Below, in pieces: positions 2,848 to 11,480 of a stretch of DNA of 30,723 nt (positions are counted from its first letter, which is position 1; each line of letters begins with the position of its first letter). The notes beneath the pieces were generated by a model. It was given only the letters and a program-made list of their open reading frames with translations, was not told the DNA's origin and made no database searches. A program made the translations under genes and the position numbers. Source of the stretch: a virus (Duplodnaviria; Heunggongvirae; Uroviricota; Caudoviricetes); the IMG/VR virus record IMGVR_UViG_2648501461_000010, positions 1 through 30,723 of that record; one strand, given 5' to 3'.

Positions 2848-3135
2848 TCAGATAGGGAAGGGAAATTGTCGGCGGGCATGCACAATATTTGCAATTTCAA
2901 TGCTTGAAGTTGCTACTCGGTACAAAACGATATAATTAGGGTGAACCACAATTTCCCGCAAACCGGATACTCGATCACTTGGCGGATATAGATATGGATG
3001 CTCAGAGAGGGCTAAAACAGACGTTTCAATCCGTATTTTTAGTCTGCGTGCTGCAGGAATATTTTCCTTAGCAATATAGGCTACGATCTGACGCAAATCA
3101 TCGCGAGCAGATGGTAGCCACAAAATGGGTAACAT
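2848..3135 (-). CDS. type II toxin, RelE/ParE family
   Basis: 95-aa protein with the typical ParE/RelE pattern (RDDLRQIVAYIA...REIVVHPNYIVLYRV...EIANIVHARR); its start overlaps the upstream antitoxin stop by 1 nt (TAATG). Confidence 0.75.
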   Translation of the reverse strand: MLPILWLPSARDDLRQIVAYIAKENIPAARRLKIRIETSVLALSEHPYLYPPSDRVSGLREIVVHPNYIVLYRVATSSIEIANIVHARRQFPFPI

Positions 3136-3326
3136 TACTCGCTCCTGTTAGTTACAGCAATTTGAGCAATAAGATTCTCCATTTCAGCCATTACCTCATC
3201 ATGTGGAATTGAGGGACGAGGGTCTGCAAGGCTTGACGCCACTTTAGCGCGTAACCATTCGTTGTAACTGTTTTCTTGTTCGGTAGTTTCGAATTCTGAA
3301 ACTATCGGAGAAAGGGCTGTACTCAT
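3135..3326 (-). CDS. putative antitoxin of the ParE/RelE-family toxin
   Basis: 63-aa acidic ORF immediately upstream of and translationally coupled to the toxin; GGAG RBS; begins 27 nt after the repressor stop. Assigned mainly by position and size. Confidence 0.6.
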   Translation of the reverse strand: MSTALSPIVSEFETTEQENSYNEWLRAKVASSLADPRPSIPHDEVMAEMENLIAQIAVTNRSE

Positions 3327-3353: not shown

Positions 3354-3755
3354 TCACGCCCGGCGGCTTTTTTGTGCCGCCAACCACCGGGCAATGGTTT
3401 CTTCCATTGATTTTTTCTTGTCTTTGATTTCTTGAAGCATTTTTTCTTGGTCTTCCTCTGGAAACGCACTAAAAGCCTGGAGCAGTTCGCGTTGACGAGG
3501 ACCAATTTTCATCGTGTCAGGGGTGAAAATTTGCTCCCCCTCTTCAGGAGGCAATAAAAACCAATGCAATGGATGCCCTGTAACCTCAACCAGTTTATCC
3601 AAACTTGAGGCTTTAGGTGTAGCCTTACCGCTGACCCATTGTTGAACAGTTTGTTGTGTCACACCAATTCTACGGGCAAGCTCAGCCTGGCTCCATCCAG
3701 TTTCCTGAAGAAGCTTGCTGATTCTGTACATAGATACTTCTAGGGCGTTCATCAT
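3354..3755 (-). CDS. prophage repressor, HTH XRE family (DicA/CI-like)
   Basis: N-terminal helix-turn-helix (SQAELARRIGVTQQTVQQW) and a C-terminal region resembling DicA; divergent from a Cro-like gene. The start could instead be the in-frame ATG at 3731 (MYRISKLL...). Confidence 0.8.
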   Translation of the reverse strand: MMNALEVSMYRISKLLQETGWSQAELARRIGVTQQTVQQWVSGKATPKASSLDKLVEVTGHPLHWFLLPPEEGEQIFTPDTMKIGPRQRELLQAFSAFPEEDQEKMLQEIKDKKKSMEETIARWLAAQKSRRA

Positions 3756-3864: not shown

Positions 3865-4137
3865 ATGCTAGATAGCACTCGCGAAAAAATTAGGCAGAAA
3901 TACACTCAAGCTGAAATAGGTCGTTATATGGGGGTCGCTCAACAGACTGTTTGGCAATGGTTTAGCTTTGACGTTCCCCCAAAGCAGGTAATTCCGTTAT
4001 GTCAGCTAATGAAGTGGGAAGTTACCCCGCATGAAATTCGCCCTGATATTTATCCTAACCCAACCGACGGTTTACCTGTTGGATTCAAGGTTAACACATC
4101 AAATGCACCGGAGCTGATTCATGAAAATCAAGCATGA
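3865..4137 (+). CDS. Cro-like HTH regulator (YdaS/DicC-like)
   Basis: 90-aa protein with an HTH (YTQAEIGRYMGVAQQTVWQW); divergent from the repressor; strong RBS GAGGAGAG; followed by a YdaT homologue as in Rac. Confidence 0.7.
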   Translation: MLDSTREKIRQKYTQAEIGRYMGVAQQTVWQWFSFDVPPKQVIPLCQLMKWEVTPHEIRPDIYPNPTDGLPVGFKVNTSNAPELIHENQA

Positions 4138-4546
4138 ACACATCCGCATGGCAATGAATGCCTGGGCGTATCCAGACGGTGAGAAAGTTCCAGCAGCTGA
4201 AATAGCCCGGACTTATTTCGAGCTGGGAATGACGTTCCCGGAACTGTATGACGACAGCCATCCGGAAGCCCTGGCTCGCAATACCCAGAAAATTTTCCGC
4301 TGGGTAGAGAAAGACACCCCTGATGCAGTTGAAAAAATTCAGGCGTTGTTACCAGCGATCGAAAAGGCAATGCCACCTTTGCTGGTGGCCAGAATGCGCA
4401 GCCACAGTTCAGCTTATTTTCGGGAGCTGGTGGAGACGCGGGAGCGACTGGTGAGAGACGCTGATGATTTTGTCGCAGTGGCAATCGCCGGTTTCAATCA
4501 GATGAACCGTGGTGGCCCGGCAGGAAATGCTGTGGCAGTACATTGA
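4121..4546 (+). CDS. ydaT: YdaT-family protein (CII-like regulator, reported toxic in Rac)
   Basis: 141-aa sequence (MKIKHEHIRMAMNAWAYPDGEKVPAAEIARTYFELGMTFPELYDDSHPEALARNTQKIFRWVEKDTPDAV...) closely matches my recollection of E. coli Rac YdaT; it overlaps the cro-like gene's 3' end. Confidence 0.75.
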   Translation: MKIKHEHIRMAMNAWAYPDGEKVPAAEIARTYFELGMTFPELYDDSHPEALARNTQKIFRWVEKDTPDAVEKIQALLPAIEKAMPPLLVARMRSHSSAYFRELVETRERLVRDADDFVAVAIAGFNQMNRGGPAGNAVAVH

Positions 4547-4617: not shown

Positions 4618-5688
4618 ATGGCTAACGCCTGGCTCAGATTATGGCATGACATGCCAAATGACCCTAAGTGGCGAACAATTGCCAGGGTGTCAGGGCAGCC
4701 AATTGCAACAGTGATGGCAGTGTATATCCACCTCCTGGTGAGCGCGTCACGAAATGTCACGCGAGGTCACATTGATGTCACGACAGAAGATTTGGCAAGT
4801 GCGCTCGACGTGACAGAAGAGGTAATTGATTCAATTTTGCAGACGATGCAGGGGCGGGTACTTGATGGTGATTTAATCACTGGATGGGAAAAACGCCAGG
4901 TGCTTAAAGAGGACAACGGCAATATTTCGCAAACCGCAAAATCTCCTGCAGAGCGCAAGAGGGCGCAGCGAGAGAGGGAAAGAAAGCGGGAACAAAATGG
5001 CGATTGTCACGGCGCGTCACGAAATGTCACGCACATGTCACGACGAGTCACGACAGATAAAGATACAGATAAAGATACAGATCAAGAAGATCAAAACACT
5101 ATGGTCCATGGCGTAAAAAACGCCACGAACCAGGCAGGGGATGTTCAGACCGTCAATCTTGGTCAGCCAGCAGGCACGACACCGGAAGCCGATTCAGCGT
5201 ATGCGCTGAAAGCCGATTCGGGCGCTGTGCAGCAGGTGATGACCGCAAGGCCGGAGCAATCACACCAACTGCAGCAGCCTGAAGCCGATTCCGCCATTCA
5301 GCGGGAAGCCGATCGGGTAGTCCCGGAAAACACCGGGCAGCCTGTGGGACGAGTGGATTATCCGGATGTGTTCGAACAGGTCTGGCGGGAATACCCGTTG
5401 CGTGCTGGGGCAAACCCGAAGAAATCCGCTTTCAGTGCCTGGAAGGCCAGATTACGCGAGGGGGTGCCACCAGAGGCCATGCTGGATGGTGTGAGGCGTT
5501 ACGCAAGATACCTGGCGGCTACCGGGAAAACGGGAACGGAATTTGTTCAGCGAGCGACGACGTTTTTTGGACCGGACCGGAATTTTGAAAACCCCTGGTT
5601 GCTCCCGGTAAGCGGCACGAACAACCAGCGTTGTGTGAATCATATTTCTGAACCGGATAACGAAATTCCGCCGGGCTTCAGGGGGTAA
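4618..5688 (+). CDS. replication initiator / replisome organizer (O-like)
   Basis: N-terminus (ANAWLRLWHDMPNDPKWRTIARVSG) fits the phage replisome-organizer motif; the coding sequence contains two iteron arrays and an AT-rich tandem repeat, as lambda O contains ori. Start placed at the ATG at 4618 (RBS AGAGG); the ORF track uses the GTG at 4612. Confidence 0.65.
   Translation: MANAWLRLWHDMPNDPKWRTIARVSGQPIATVMAVYIHLLVSASRNVTRGHIDVTTEDLASALDVTEEVIDSILQTMQGRVLDGDLITGWEKRQVLKEDNGNISQTAKSPAERKRAQRERERKREQNGDCHGASRNVTHMSRRVTTDKDTDKDTDQEDQNTMVHGVKNATNQAGDVQTVNLGQPAGTTPEADSAYALKADSGAVQQVMTARPEQSHQLQQPEADSAIQREADRVVPENTGQPVGRVDYPDVFEQVWREYPLRAGANPKKSAFSAWKARLREGVPPEAMLDGVRRYARYLAATGKTGTEFVQRATTFFGPDRNFENPWLLPVSGTNNQRCVNHISEPDNEIPPGFRG
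4742..4784. repeat. iteron array 1 (GTCAC repeats) inside the initiator gene
   Basis: GTCAC at 4746, 4756, 4766 and 4777, spaced 10-11 bp; the 21-bp unit GCGCGTCACGAAATGTCACGC recurs at 5012. Confidence 0.6.
5002..5093. repeat. iteron array 2 plus AT-rich tandem repeat (candidate replication origin)
   Basis: GTCAC at 5006, 5016, 5026, 5037 and 5047 at about 10-bp (one helical turn) spacing, followed by tandem GATAAAGATACA x2 and an A-rich tract. Confidence 0.6.
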
Positions 5689-5728
5689 GTGTTAATTTCT
5701 GGTCATGAGGTAATTTTCAGGAGGGCTT

Positions 5729-6154
5729 GTGGCAAAAGTTTTTACACAAGAAGAGCGGGAAAAAATTAAAGGGCAGGTTCTTGAACTCGTACGCCAGAGT
5801 GGGCGCGAGACGTTACGACAACTGGAAGCTAAAACTGGGGCAACAAGATATCTGATGAGCGTTCTGGCCAGAGAGCTGGTTGCCAGTGGCGATGTATACA
5901 ACTCTGGTTACGGGTTATTCCCGTCTGAACAGGCGCGTAAGGACTGGCAAAATGCCCGTAAAAAGCTCTCAAGGGCAAAGCTGAATAAACCATCTGCGGT
6001 TGATCCGGACCTTATCTGGTCGTTACCAGACGGCGAAATACGCCGCTACGACAGGCGCCTGAATATAATCTGTCGCGAGTGCCGGAAGAGCGAAGCTATG
6101 CAGCGTGTACTGGCATTTTATCAAGGAAATGTTAGGTATTTTAGACGTTACTAG
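5729..6154 (+). CDS. hypothetical protein (141 aa), possibly winged-helix, downstream of the initiator
   Basis: GTG start with RBS CAGGAGGG; basic protein with no recognised family; sits where a helicase loader (P/DnaC-like) would usually be. Confidence 0.5.
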   Translation: MAKVFTQEEREKIKGQVLELVRQSGRETLRQLEAKTGATRYLMSVLARELVASGDVYNSGYGLFPSEQARKDWQNARKKLSRAKLNKPSAVDPDLIWSLPDGEIRRYDRRLNIICRECRKSEAMQRVLAFYQGNVRYFRRY

Positions 6155-6307: not shown

Positions 6308-6994
6308 ATGACCCCAATAAAAATATTTATGACTATTGCTGATTTCAAACGGCCTAAATTGGAGCTCCCAAACGGGGCAAACAAACTACTACTGCACTCT
6401 TGCTGTGCTCCATGTTCCGGTGAAGTGATGGAGGCGCTTCAGGCCTCGGGAATCGACTACACCATCTTTTTCTACAACCCGAACATTCATCCTCAGAAAG
6501 AGTATTTAATTCGTAAGGATGAAAATATTCGCTTTGCTGAACAACACGGCGTGCCGTTTATCGATGCTGATTACGACACCGACAACTGGTTTGAACGTGC
6601 CAAAGGAATGGAATGGGAGCCTGAGAGGGGGATCCGTTGTACCATGTGTTTTGACATGCGTTTTGAGCGGACAGCGTTGTACGCTGCTGAAAATGGTTTC
6701 AGTGTGATCAGCAGTTCACTGGGCATTTCACGCTGGAAAAATATGCAGCAGGTTAACGAGTGTGGGCGGCGAGCTGTTGCGCATTATCCGGGTATGGTGT
6801 ACTGGGATTATAACTGGCGCAAGCAGGGCGGCTCGTCCCGTATGATTGAAATCAGCAAGCGCGAAAAATTCTATCAGCAGGAATATTGTGGCTGTGTGTA
6901 TTCTCTGCGCGATACCAATCTACACCGCAAATCTCAGGGGCGCCCTCTTATCAAAATTGGCCAACTCCACTACGGAAAAGAAGAGAAGGAGTGA
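6308..6994 (+). CDS. queH: epoxyqueuosine reductase QueH (DUF208 family)
   Basis: N-terminal [11 protein letters not shown] motif plus downstream conserved Cys residues and a size of about 225 aa are characteristic of QueH. Alternative start ATG at 6329. Confidence 0.75.
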
Positions 6995-7231
6995 TTTTAT
7001 GGATCACCTTTCTGATTGATTTCATATTGGCGAGGTGACGTGAGTTAAGTAGAATTGCTGCGGGTGCTTGAGGCTATCTGCCTCAGGCATGAACACCAAA
7101 AGGCAGATAGAGAAAAGCCCCAGTTAACATTACGCGTCCTGCAAGACGCTTAACATTAATCTGAGGCTCAATCCATGCTGAACACATGTAGGTTAGCCTC
7201 TTACGTGCCGAAAGGCAAGGAGAAGCAGGCT

Positions 7232-7387
7232 ATGAAGCAGCAAAAGGCGATGTTAATCGCCCTGATCGTCATCTGTTTAACCGTCATAGTGACGGCACTG
7301 GTAACGAGGAAAGACCTCTGCGAGGTACGAATCCGAACCGGCCAGACGGAGGTCGCTGTCTTCACAGCTTACGAACCTGAGGAGTAA
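7232..7387 (+). CDS. Hok/Gef-family type I toxin
   Basis: MKQQKAMLIALIVICLTVIVTALVTRKDLCEVRIRTGQTEVAVFTAYEPEE matches the Hok consensus (transmembrane helix, LTRK..LCE, EVA..AYE); RBS AAGGAGAAG; followed by the typical structured 3' end and terminator. Confidence 0.8.
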   Translation: MKQQKAMLIALIVICLTVIVTALVTRKDLCEVRIRTGQTEVAVFTAYEPEE

Positions 7388-7834: not shown

Positions 7835-8884
7835 GTGCGGGTATTACTTCGACCTGTTCCGGTACCGGAACTTGGGCTGGTGGTCCTTAAACCAGGCCGT
7901 GAATCCATGCAGGTATTCCATAACCCTCGAGTGCTGGTGGAGCCGGAACCGAAAAGCATGCGTGGTCTGCCGTCCGGCATCGTCCCTGCCGTTCGCCAGC
8001 CGCTGGCGGAGGATAAATCATTACTGCGGTTTTTCAGCAATGAGCGTGTGATTCGTGCTGCTGGCGGCGCTGGTGCACTGTCTGACTGGCTGTTGCGTCA
8101 TGTCAAATCCTGCCAGTGGCCTCATGGTGACTATCATCACAGTGAAACCGTCATACATCGTTACGGCACCGGCGCGATGGTGTTGTGCTGGCACTGCGAT
8201 AACCAGCTGCGTGACCAGACATCCGAATCACTTGAGCAACTTGCTCAACAAAACCTGGCAGCATGGATGATTGACGTCATACGCCATGCAATGAATGGCA
8301 CGCAGGAGCGGGAGTTATCGCTGGCTGAATTATCCTGGTGGGCGGTCTGCAATCAAGTGGCGGACGCGCTTCCGGAGGCAGTATTACGTCGTTCTCTGGG
8401 GTTACGTGCGGAAAAAATCCGCGCGGTGTACCGCGAAAGCGACATCGTACCGGGAGAGCAGACCGCCACCAGCATACTAAAGCAGCGCACAAAAAATCTT
8501 GCGCCGTTGCCTCACTTCCACCAGCAACAGAACCCACCACTGGAAAAGGCGGTGGTCAGCATTGCCGTTGATCCGGACTCTCCGGAATCTTTCATGAGGC
8601 GACCTAAACGTCGCCGTTGGGTAAATGAGAAATATACGCGCTGGGTGAAGACACAGCCGTGTGCGTGTTGTGGTCAGCCAGCCGACGATCCCCATCACCT
8701 GATTGGTCACGGTCAGGGAGGGATGGGAACAAAGGCCCACGATATTTTCACGCTACCGTTGTGCCGGGAACATCACAACGAACTTCATGCGGATCCGCTG
8801 GCGTTCGAAGAAAAGCATGGTTCCCAGGTTGATTTAATTTTTCGTTTTCTTGATCACGCCTTTGCAACCGGCGTGCTTGGGTAA
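7835..8884 (+). CDS. DUF968-family protein (YdfU-like) with C-terminal HNH/zinc-binding-like motif
   Basis: 349 aa; C-terminus (CACCGQPADDPHHL...CREHHNELH) is an HNH-like Cys/His cluster; position upstream of rusA and Q mirrors ydfU in Qin. GTG start with RBS CTGGAGG. Confidence 0.65.
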   Translation: MRVLLRPVPVPELGLVVLKPGRESMQVFHNPRVLVEPEPKSMRGLPSGIVPAVRQPLAEDKSLLRFFSNERVIRAAGGAGALSDWLLRHVKSCQWPHGDYHHSETVIHRYGTGAMVLCWHCDNQLRDQTSESLEQLAQQNLAAWMIDVIRHAMNGTQERELSLAELSWWAVCNQVADALPEAVLRRSLGLRAEKIRAVYRESDIVPGEQTATSILKQRTKNLAPLPHFHQQQNPPLEKAVVSIAVDPDSPESFMRRPKRRRWVNEKYTRWVKTQPCACCGQPADDPHHLIGHGQGGMGTKAHDIFTLPLCREHHNELHADPLAFEEKHGSQVDLIFRFLDHAFATGVLG

Positions 8885-11170: not shown

Positions 11171-11246
11171 GGCCCTTTAGCTCAGTGGTGAGAGCGAGCG
11201 ACTCATAATCGCCAGGTCGCTGGTTCAAATCCAGCAAGGGCCACCA
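11171..11246 (+). tRNA. tRNA with CAU anticodon (tRNA-Ile2 type, lysidine-dependent, or tRNA-Met)
   Basis: 76-nt cloverleaf by manual folding, anticodon loop CUCAUAA, 3' CCA encoded; close to my recollection of E. coli ileX. Confidence 0.8.
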
Positions 11247-11247
11247 A

Positions 11248-11324
11248 CCGCCACTAGCTCATCAGGAAAGAGCGTCAACCCTTTAAGTTGAGAGTGCGAG
11301 GTTCGAGTCCCCGGTGGCGGTCCA
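11248..11324 (+). tRNA. tRNA-like gene, anticodon UUU (Lys) with atypical C33
   Basis: 77-nt cloverleaf by manual folding: 7-bp acceptor stem, D-loop with GG, TPsiC loop UUCGAGU, encoded CCA; anticodon stem UCAAC/GUUGA with loop CCUUUAA. Position 33 is C instead of the near-universal U, and the T-stem has one A-C mismatch. Confidence 0.55.
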
Positions 11325-11326
11325 GT

Positions 11327-11402
<76 letters not shown>

Positions 11403-11405
11403 TAT

Positions 11406-11480
<75 letters not shown>

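Follow-up and report, generated by a model that had tools for sequence, protein, structure and literature searches.

A probable two-array replication origin within the initiator gene of a lambda-like Escherichia coli prophage

We analysed a 30,723-nucleotide (nt) stretch of viral DNA (Caudoviricetes; IMG/VR record IMGVR_UViG_2648501461_000010), which we call the window, and in particular its gene for a 356-amino-acid (aa) replication initiator, or 'replisome organizer'. We suggest, with a probability of roughly 80%, that positions 4742-5100 are the origin from which a lambda-like E. coli prophage replicates and that this origin lies within the gene for its initiator. The segment appears to belong to the iteron class of origins, since it has multiple repeats within the initiator open reading frame (ORF), an adjacent A+T-rich candidate unwinding element, and repeats that co-vary with the N-terminal domain (N-domain) of the protein. 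An initial annotation of this DNA had pointed to a likely origin and initiator binding sites at this place. That proposal is supported as far as sequence goes, by selection at the DNA level, by co-variation with the N-domain and by the conservation of the A-rich tract. The design is a familiar one among phage origins. The bipartite layout is the variant, and it is found in a very common initiator family for which we found no studied member.

Repeat anatomy and constraint on the DNA

A pattern search finds nine copies of GTCAC on the plus strand of the initiator gene, arranged in two arrays. The four copies of array 1 start at 4746, 4756, 4766 and 4777 (spacing 10, 10 and 11 base pairs (bp)), and the five copies of array 2 at 5006, 5016, 5026, 5037 and 5047 (spacing 10, 10, 11 and 10 bp). 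The full form of the site is GTCACG, which is present in eight of the nine copies. The array starts are 260 bp apart, and the gap from array 1 to array 2 is about 230 bp. The 21-nt unit GCGCGTCACGAAATGTCACGC is present once in each array as an exact duplicate with an offset of 270. Directly past array 2, GATAAAGATACA is repeated in tandem and in frame (5056-5067 and 5068-5079), where it encodes DKDT DKDT, and is followed by GATCAAGAAGATCAAAACAC. The GC content of the initiator gene is lowest here, at 33-37% over 5040-5119, with an AT skew of +0.5 to +0.63. The initial annotation had described nine iterons in clusters of four and five at a spacing of 10-11 bp, a 21-bp unit duplicated between the clusters, an in-frame tandem repeat with an A-rich tract after the second cluster, and an unusual split of about 260 bp. 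All of this is borne out, though the single inverted copy CGTGAC between the arrays (Table 1) had been missed, and the split is a trait of the whole family, as shown below.

A chance origin of the arrays is excluded. Seven pairs of neighbours on the same strand have a spacing of 10-11 bp, whereas 2000 block shuffles gave 0.12 such pairs on average and never more than 2. The two arrays are also the only same-strand clusters of at least three GTCAC copies within the 30.7-kb window. Because the spacings are not multiples of three, the sites fall in all three reading frames, so that GTC ACG is read as VT, xGT CAC as C/G-H, and xxG TCA CGx as SR. Thus, a repeat at the protein level cannot explain the sites.

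Constraint on the DNA itself was examined with a codon test on 17-19 genes of the GTCAC class, taken from different genera with genomes of 34-69% GC. The codons at the sites are fixed in 95-100% of cases (S as TCA, V as GTC, T as ACG, G as GGT and H as CAC), compared with a background use of 17-46%. In the inverted copy, the codon of V65 is GTG in 100% of the sequences that have V there, and the GAT and AAA codons of the A-rich tract are about 90-100% fixed. Other conserved residues of the N-domain use two to six synonymous codons each, with D11 as the one exception (95% GAC), and the third positions in the spacers vary freely. The synonymous conservation of array 1 is as strong as that of array 2. 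The constraint maps to the sites, the inverted copy and the A-rich repeats, and this pattern in the aligned genes indicates selection at the DNA level. Such constraint explains the invariance of the peptides SRNVTRGHxDVT and CHxESRxVT.

Two GATC (Dam) sites are located 10 bp apart within the A-rich tract, at 5080 and 5090, and AAAGATCTAAAA is present at the position equivalent to 5080-5093 in several relatives. An imperfect inverted repeat adjoins the tract on its 3' side (Table 1). Hairpins past the tract are weakly enriched in relatives, where a perfect stem of at least 7 is found in 25%, versus 9.5% of controls. Several relatives have GC-rich hairpins at the equivalent place, and the loop TCACTACGTTC is common to some of them (L007, L023). 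In a promoter scan of the region, matches were no commoner than in shuffles, and the sole match is a weak one on the minus strand inside array 2.

Table 1. Features of the initiator gene and of the candidate origin within it (window coordinates)
Feature	Position	Strand	Remarks
Initiator ('replisome organizer') gene, 356 aa	4618..5688	+	phrog_3729; ATG 4618 behind GAGGTGAG
N-terminal winged-helix domain, aa 1-95	4618..4902	+	coding region
21-nt unit GCGCGTCACGAAATGTCACGC	4742..4762, repeated 5012-5032	+	exact duplicate
Iteron array 1, four (T)GTCACG sites	4746..4782	+	encodes S44-T55 (SRNVTRGHIDVT): end of helix 29-49 and loop 50-55
Single inverted iteron copy CGTGAC	4809..4814	-	33 bp past array 1
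Iteron array 2, five GTCACG sites	5006..5052	+	encodes part of predicted disordered linker, aa 130-145
A-rich tract, (GATAAAGATACA)x2 then GATCAAGAAGATCAAAACAC	5053..5100	+	candidate DNA-unwinding element; lowest GC of the gene
Mosaic (module-exchange) junction between the N-domain and origin cassette and the C-terminal domain	5075..5093		alignments of L002/L003/L006 and L004
Imperfect inverted repeat TGGTCCATGGCGT-AAAAA-ACGCCACGAACCA	5102..5132		13-pair stem, directly 3' of A-rich tract
Small helical C-terminal domain, about aa 246-329	5353..5604	+	
C-terminal tail ...VNHISEPDNEIPPGFRG	5611..5685	+	matches C-terminal tail of E. coli DnaT

Distribution of the arrays and exchange of the module

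Homologues of the N-domain number in the hundreds. Our family sample consists of 51 loci from one-genome-per-species contigs, and arrays were counted on 49 sequences, including the window. The loci come from Enterobacterales, Pseudomonas, Burkholderiales, Neisseriales, Sphingomonas and Acidobacteria, at 33-69% GC, and the N-domain family is also found in Aeromonas. We searched for four cores, (T)GTCACG, (T)GTAACGC, CGAACGC and GAAACGC. At least two copies of the class-specific core are present at both places in 40 of the 49 sequences, and array 2 alone is present in two (L039 from Edaphobacter, with seven copies there, and L054). Three or four iteron variants thus occupy the equivalent two places, GAAACGC being only occasional. 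About 27 sequences have (T)GTCACG at both places. In these, the array 1 spacing of 10, 10 and 11 is kept, and the inverted copy is found at the equivalent place in most GTCAC-class loci. The spacing in the family is almost always 10-11 bp, and the copy number of array 2 in relatives is 3-9. Array 2 almost always stands directly before AGATAAAGATAAAGA or GATACAGATACA repeats, even at 69% GC, and GATAAA/GATACA repeats lie 3' of it in nearly all family members across the whole GC range. The split into two arrays is a conserved family trait and no accident of the window phage. Conserved helical phasing between the arrays was considered and rejected. Most E. coli-type sequences have 229 bp between the last array 1 site and the first array 2 site, but the distance ranges from 227 to 268 bp in this group and reaches about 320 bp in other genera.

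Viral contigs were also scanned for the array 1 signature GTCAC-N5-GTCAC-N5-GTCAC-N6-GTCAC, which matched at least 120 contigs. Among the matches listed, 109 have an ORF with the family motif PNDPKWR around the signature, three lie too near a contig end, and three are diverged or truncated copies of the family; the second array is located at +260 in 60 cases and at +271 in 14. The 72 distinct sequences among the matches listed have array sizes of 4+5, 6+5, 6+4, 4+4, 4+3, 6+6, 6+3 and 6+9, and all 533 spacings in them are 10 or 11. Within E. coli prophages, the copy number of array 1 ranges from 4 to 6.

The same scan also found the signature outside the family, in five viral contigs among the matches listed (L141, at 8822-8870, L068, L144, L170 and L136). 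It lies there in non-coding-looking DNA that belongs to satellite-like elements. One of the five arrays stands beside a 755-aa ORF, which by eye only looks like a primase-polymerase/helicase. Such GTCAC arrays may be origins of other replicons.

Mosaic relatives separate the arrays from the rest of the region. In the E. coli relatives L002, L003 and L006, ydaT and the N-domain module (N-module) are common with the window up to 5075-5088, at 85-89% identity. The junction lies directly past the GATAAAGATACA repeats, and beyond it these relatives have a DnaT-type C-terminal domain (PF17948) and a lambda-P-like gene. Their array 1 has six sites versus four in the window, which adds 21 bp to the gene and 7 aa to the protein. 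In array 2 they have five sites, and the spacers differ from those of the window. Their array 1 aligns to array 2 of the window, and the alignment suggests sequence exchange between arrays. In the prophage of E. coli O157:H7 ATCC 43894 (L004), cI, cro and ydaT are 93% identical to those of the window, the C-terminal domain (C-domain) is 93% identical and the DUF977 gene 88%. The segment 4545-5092 is replaced in this prophage by an unrelated N-module without GTCAC arrays, and the match to the window resumes from 5093 on. Therefore, the arrays go with the N-domain and with nothing else. They do not track the repressor, Cro, the cII-like gene, the C-domain or the downstream genes. Co-variation of the repeats with the DNA-binding domain of the initiator is seen in this comparison and also in the iteron variants that accompany diverged N-domains.

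The N-module of the O157:H7 prophage (L004:2160-2500) is unrelated in sequence to that of the window (hhalign probability 0.5%), and the layout of the two is alike. It has three AAGGGGCTT sites at about 2166-2200 and three more at about 2421-2455, with 256 bp from start to start. A purine-rich hexamer repeat, (AAGAACAGGAACAGGA)x2, is located past the second array, and then comes the junction to the C-domain that is common with the window.

In lambda O, specificity resides in a module made up of the N-domain and the origin, and the C-terminal part handles the loader. In the family described here, array 2 and the A-rich tract are placed in the part of the gene for a disordered linker and array 1 in that for an insertion-tolerant loop within the DNA-binding domain. 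Thus, the N-domain together with the origin is one exchangeable specificity cassette.

The initiator, its proposed action and alternative readings

The call of a replication initiator gene in the initial annotation is supported on several grounds. The protein matches phrog_3729 ('replication initiation protein') over its full length (E 4.3e-258, residues 1-356 on profile positions 1-356), and its NCBI name is 'phage replisome organizer'. The gene follows cI, cro and a cII-like gene, which is the position of O in lambda. The N-domain has a winged-helix fold, the nearest structures being the N-terminal domain of DnaD and a RepA_N initiator, and it shares with the RepA_N initiators a DnaD-like winged helix at this place. 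A profile of 54 N-domain homologues gave no match against the sequences of the PDB. The predicted local distance difference test (pLDDT) score is below 50 for aa 130-160, and array 2 encodes part of a linker that is predicted to be disordered. This linker is otherwise variable, and its only invariant residues are those encoded by the sites. No residues specific to an iteron class are obvious in the recognition helix; the class differences are located in the array-1-encoded loop and in aa 96-115.

At the other end of the protein, the tail matches that of DnaT in the PDB by phmmer (6aep, E 6e-4; 2ru8; 9zbt_D, 'Replication restart protein DnaT', residues 159-179) and in the NCBIfam DnaT model NF002770 (positions 156-179). 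The window protein has the DnaT tail motif SEPDxxIPPGFRG. The DnaT DNA-binding domain PF17948 has no match in the window protein, and it matches the L002-type sister initiator with E 9.5e-18. Initiators that bear the tail have a DnaC-like gene downstream (L004, L029) or no loader (the window, L005, L017, L024). This distribution hints that the tail links the initiator to the host DnaC/restart machinery.

By analogy with other systems, we infer that the initiator binds the arrays and that the segment is active as an origin. The 356-aa protein would bind the 6-7-bp (T)GTCACG sites via its N-terminal winged helix. Since the sites are co-oriented and one helical turn apart, the protomers would be arranged head to tail along a single face of the double helix. 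Such sites form two arrays, of four and five, to which the one inverted site is added. The promoter-distal array adjoins the A-rich GATAAA/GATACA tract, which is where the duplex would open. The C-terminal half of the initiator would then bring in the helicase. In relatives, this could occur via the product of the next gene, which is lambda-P-like in L006, L007, L032 and L038, DnaC/IstB-like in L004, L021, L029 and L044, DnaB-like in L036 and L043, and for a primase-helicase in L016. Neither the window phage nor isolated phages such as Tritos have a helicase-loader gene between the initiator and DUF977, and therefore the window phage presumably uses host DnaB-DnaC, perhaps with the DnaT-like tail as a candidate contact. 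Array 1 may supply extra binding sites, or may act in looping or in self-control.

A bolder proposal is that the two arrays are an obligatory bipartite origin. Initiator oligomers on the arrays and on the inverted site would loop or wrap the 230 bp in between, where the remainder of the DNA-binding domain is encoded, the resulting strain would open the GATAAA tract, and the same contacts would throttle transcription of the initiator gene, so that the cassette would be self-limiting; the DnaT-like tail would recruit the helicase without a loader. Because the unrelated O157:H7 N-module shows the same layout, such a design could hold generally across a large class of phage origins. We regard this proposal as doubtful.

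Several points weigh against assigning an origin here. The 356-aa initiator has no Pfam family at E <= 0.01, and thus no match to the known initiator families there, and its similarity to TIGR01714 (SPP1 G38P type; residues 5-125, E 0.016) reaches 15.4 bits versus a curated cut-off of 49.8. There are no DnaA boxes (at most one mismatch) between 4600 and 5600, and there is no phage helicase loader in the window, which makes the helicase-loading step a conjecture. Array 1 is absent in some lineages, and none of the four searched cores is apparent in 7 of the 49 members. In the literature searched, we found no published binding or replication data for any family member. The papers on iterons, replisome organizers and DnaT-like prophage origins offer general precedents only and nothing on this initiator family, and the paper on the replication region of the 'Eru' non-lambdoid Shiga toxin (Stx) phages makes no mention of iterons or of the window module. 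The counts of loci are not independent events either, since relatives share ancestry. The synonymous sites elsewhere in the gene are saturated, however, and for this reason we argue that shared ancestry does not explain the fixed codons.

Array 1, perhaps with the inverted copy, could mainly be a control element, with array 2 and the A-rich tract as the whole origin. Initiator bound there, within its own reading frame, would hold down transcription of the gene, or else it would pair with array 2 or with a further copy (looping or 'handcuffing') and so limit initiation in the manner of plasmid iterons. In agreement with this, array 1 is dispensable in the lineages that have array 2 only, its copy number varies within E. 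coli prophages, it is some 230 bp away from the tract that array 2 adjoins, and lambda replication in vitro needs only two iterons next to the AT-rich region (PMC7466680). However, its synonymous conservation equals that of array 2, it is present in about 40 of the 49 members, the unrelated O157 module has the two-array layout too, and Stx phages require their two extra, distal iterons for replication (PMC7466680). Control and origin roles are not mutually exclusive. Taken together, we consider it unlikely that array 1 serves mainly for control.

Two further explanations would deny the repeats any part in an origin. Two arrays of short direct repeats at one-turn spacing resemble parC-type centromeres, and parC of plasmid R1 has two sets of 11-bp repeats. 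One relative (L017) has a gene for a ParB helix-turn-helix protein downstream. The arrays might thus be envisaged as a site of the centromere or packaging type, or as operators to which a different regulator of the phage binds. But they are intragenic, no promoter separates them, no partition genes adjoin them, and such genes are lacking in the window and in most relatives. The arrays are absent in L004 despite its 93% identical cI, Cro and YdaT, and they do not go with DUF977 either; they track the initiator N-domain, and an A-rich tract of the unwinding type is conserved beside them. A role of this kind is very improbable. The repeats could also be a by-product of a peptide motif, or of slippage or recombination at the mosaic junction, and have no function as DNA. 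The peptide RNVT does recur (SRNVTRGH and SRNVTHMSRRVT), a module junction is located at 5075-5093, and the arrays differ in copy number and seem to exchange sequence. This explanation is already contradicted by the reading of the sites in all three frames. Moreover, it is only at the sites that the choice among synonymous codons is fixed across genomes of 34-69% GC, different iteron variants are found at the equivalent two places, and array 2 lies in a disordered, variable linker in which only the site-encoded residues are invariant. We give it hardly any credence. An origin within the initiator gene remains the reading that we favor.

Known systems and genomic setting

The initial annotation had likened the region to lambda ori, and the likeness holds in design and in gene position. 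In lambda, the origin is located within the initiator gene O, where initiator-binding repeats are followed by an A+T-rich tract (PMC7466680). The Stx phages 933W and P27 have the same arrangement, and in all of them, as in the window, the gene comes after cI, cro and cII. In Stx phages, six instead of four iterons add 13 aa to the protein, and in the window family the number of sites likewise varies and adds residues, six versus four giving 7 aa more. Unlike lambda, the window initiator has no sequence homology to O (no match to Phage_rep_O or any other Pfam family), and the window phage has no P gene. Its sites are 6-7 bp long, direct and one turn apart, whereas the lambda units are roughly 19-20 bp; and it has two arrays about 230 bp apart, the first of which is inside the region coding for the DNA-binding domain.

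P22 gene 18 and phage L gene 18 encode distantly related initiators with repeats of their own in the coding region, and in phage L these are six imprecise 11-bp repeats, which have been inferred to make up the origin of that phage (PMC8022706). The location in the coding region and the one-turn spacing of phage L are as in the window, but P22 and phage L have a single array, an O/gp18-like protein and a DnaB-type helicase, gp12, as its partner. In SPP1, G38P binds direct repeats beside an AT-rich unwinding element, and oriL is within gene 38 (PMC6316719). The window initiator shares with G38P the origin in its own gene, the NCBI name 'replisome organizer' and a faint N-terminal match to TIGR01714. 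SPP1 differs in that another copy, oriR, lies far from the first and in that the phage encodes a loader and a helicase of its own; there is no extra array elsewhere in the window.

The DnaD-like winged-helix N-domain of pSK41 Rep binds Rep boxes in the middle of the gene, in the part for a linker that is dispensable (PMC5703833). Both the fold and the placing of repeats in the linker-encoding part of the gene recur here. Unlike the RepA_N initiators pSK41 Rep and pTZ2162 RepA, the window protein has no Pfam match to RepA_N (PF06970), it comes from phages of Gram-negative hosts and they from Gram-positive plasmids, and it has an additional array in the N-domain coding region. As for E. coli DnaT, the likeness is confined to the last ~25 residues of the initiator (...SEPDNEIPPGFRG). 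The C-domain of the window protein is not PF17948, and DnaT lacks a sequence-specific origin-binding domain. The window family differs from the known systems in its very short, one-turn-spaced sites, in its conserved GATAAA-type tract, and in the second array within the coding region of the DNA-binding domain.

About half of complete E. coli genomes contain the initiator module, for which Pfam nevertheless has no family. Defining the origin gives a nucleotide-level map of the sites, the unwinding tract and the module boundary for a very common prophage replicon. It is also a clear example of DNA sites that dictate the invariant residues of the protein which presumably reads those sites. The three or four iteron variants, each paired with its N-domains, are a natural set in which changes of specificity can be followed. 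The window phage would be a system for the recruitment of the host helicase by a phage without its own loader.

An initiator match is found in 2651 of 5426 complete E. coli genomes, and most of the gene is present in 1647. The N-module occurs in 24 phage records, with no classic model phage among them. Eleven plasmid records match. Two of them are 51-kb Pseudomonas elements, and most are large plasmids of E. coli or chromosomes under a wrong label; such matches are uninformative on autonomous replication. Upstream of the initiator gene, for which the mechanical ORF begins at GTG 4612, lie the genes for a cI-like repressor (3354-3755, minus strand), a YdaS/Cro-like protein (3865-4137) and a YdaT/cII-like protein (4121-4546). 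Downstream are DUF977 (5729-6154), QueH and hok/sok. The O157 prophage L004, which has the same C-domain as the window, carries a DnaC-like ATPase gene and a DUF1627 gene (L004:3079-4617), versus only 5689-5728 at this place in the window.

The queH gene (6308-6994) encodes an epoxyqueuosine reductase (Pfam E 1e-65) and is located directly past the replication module; it also follows DUF977 in L002. The hok/sok-type toxin-antitoxin system consists of a sok RNA (7062-7237, 120 bits) and a Hok-like ORF (7175-7387). On the minus strand of the early-left region (1020-1494), Rfam identifies DicF (1443-1494), a C4 antisense RNA (1020-1107) and isrK (1132-1208). Two small overlapping ORFs of 95 and 63 aa lie beside the repressor gene on the minus strand (2848-3326), and their L004 equivalent is annotated as a RelB-family antitoxin. 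Four tRNA genes are clustered at 11171-11477 in the prophage.

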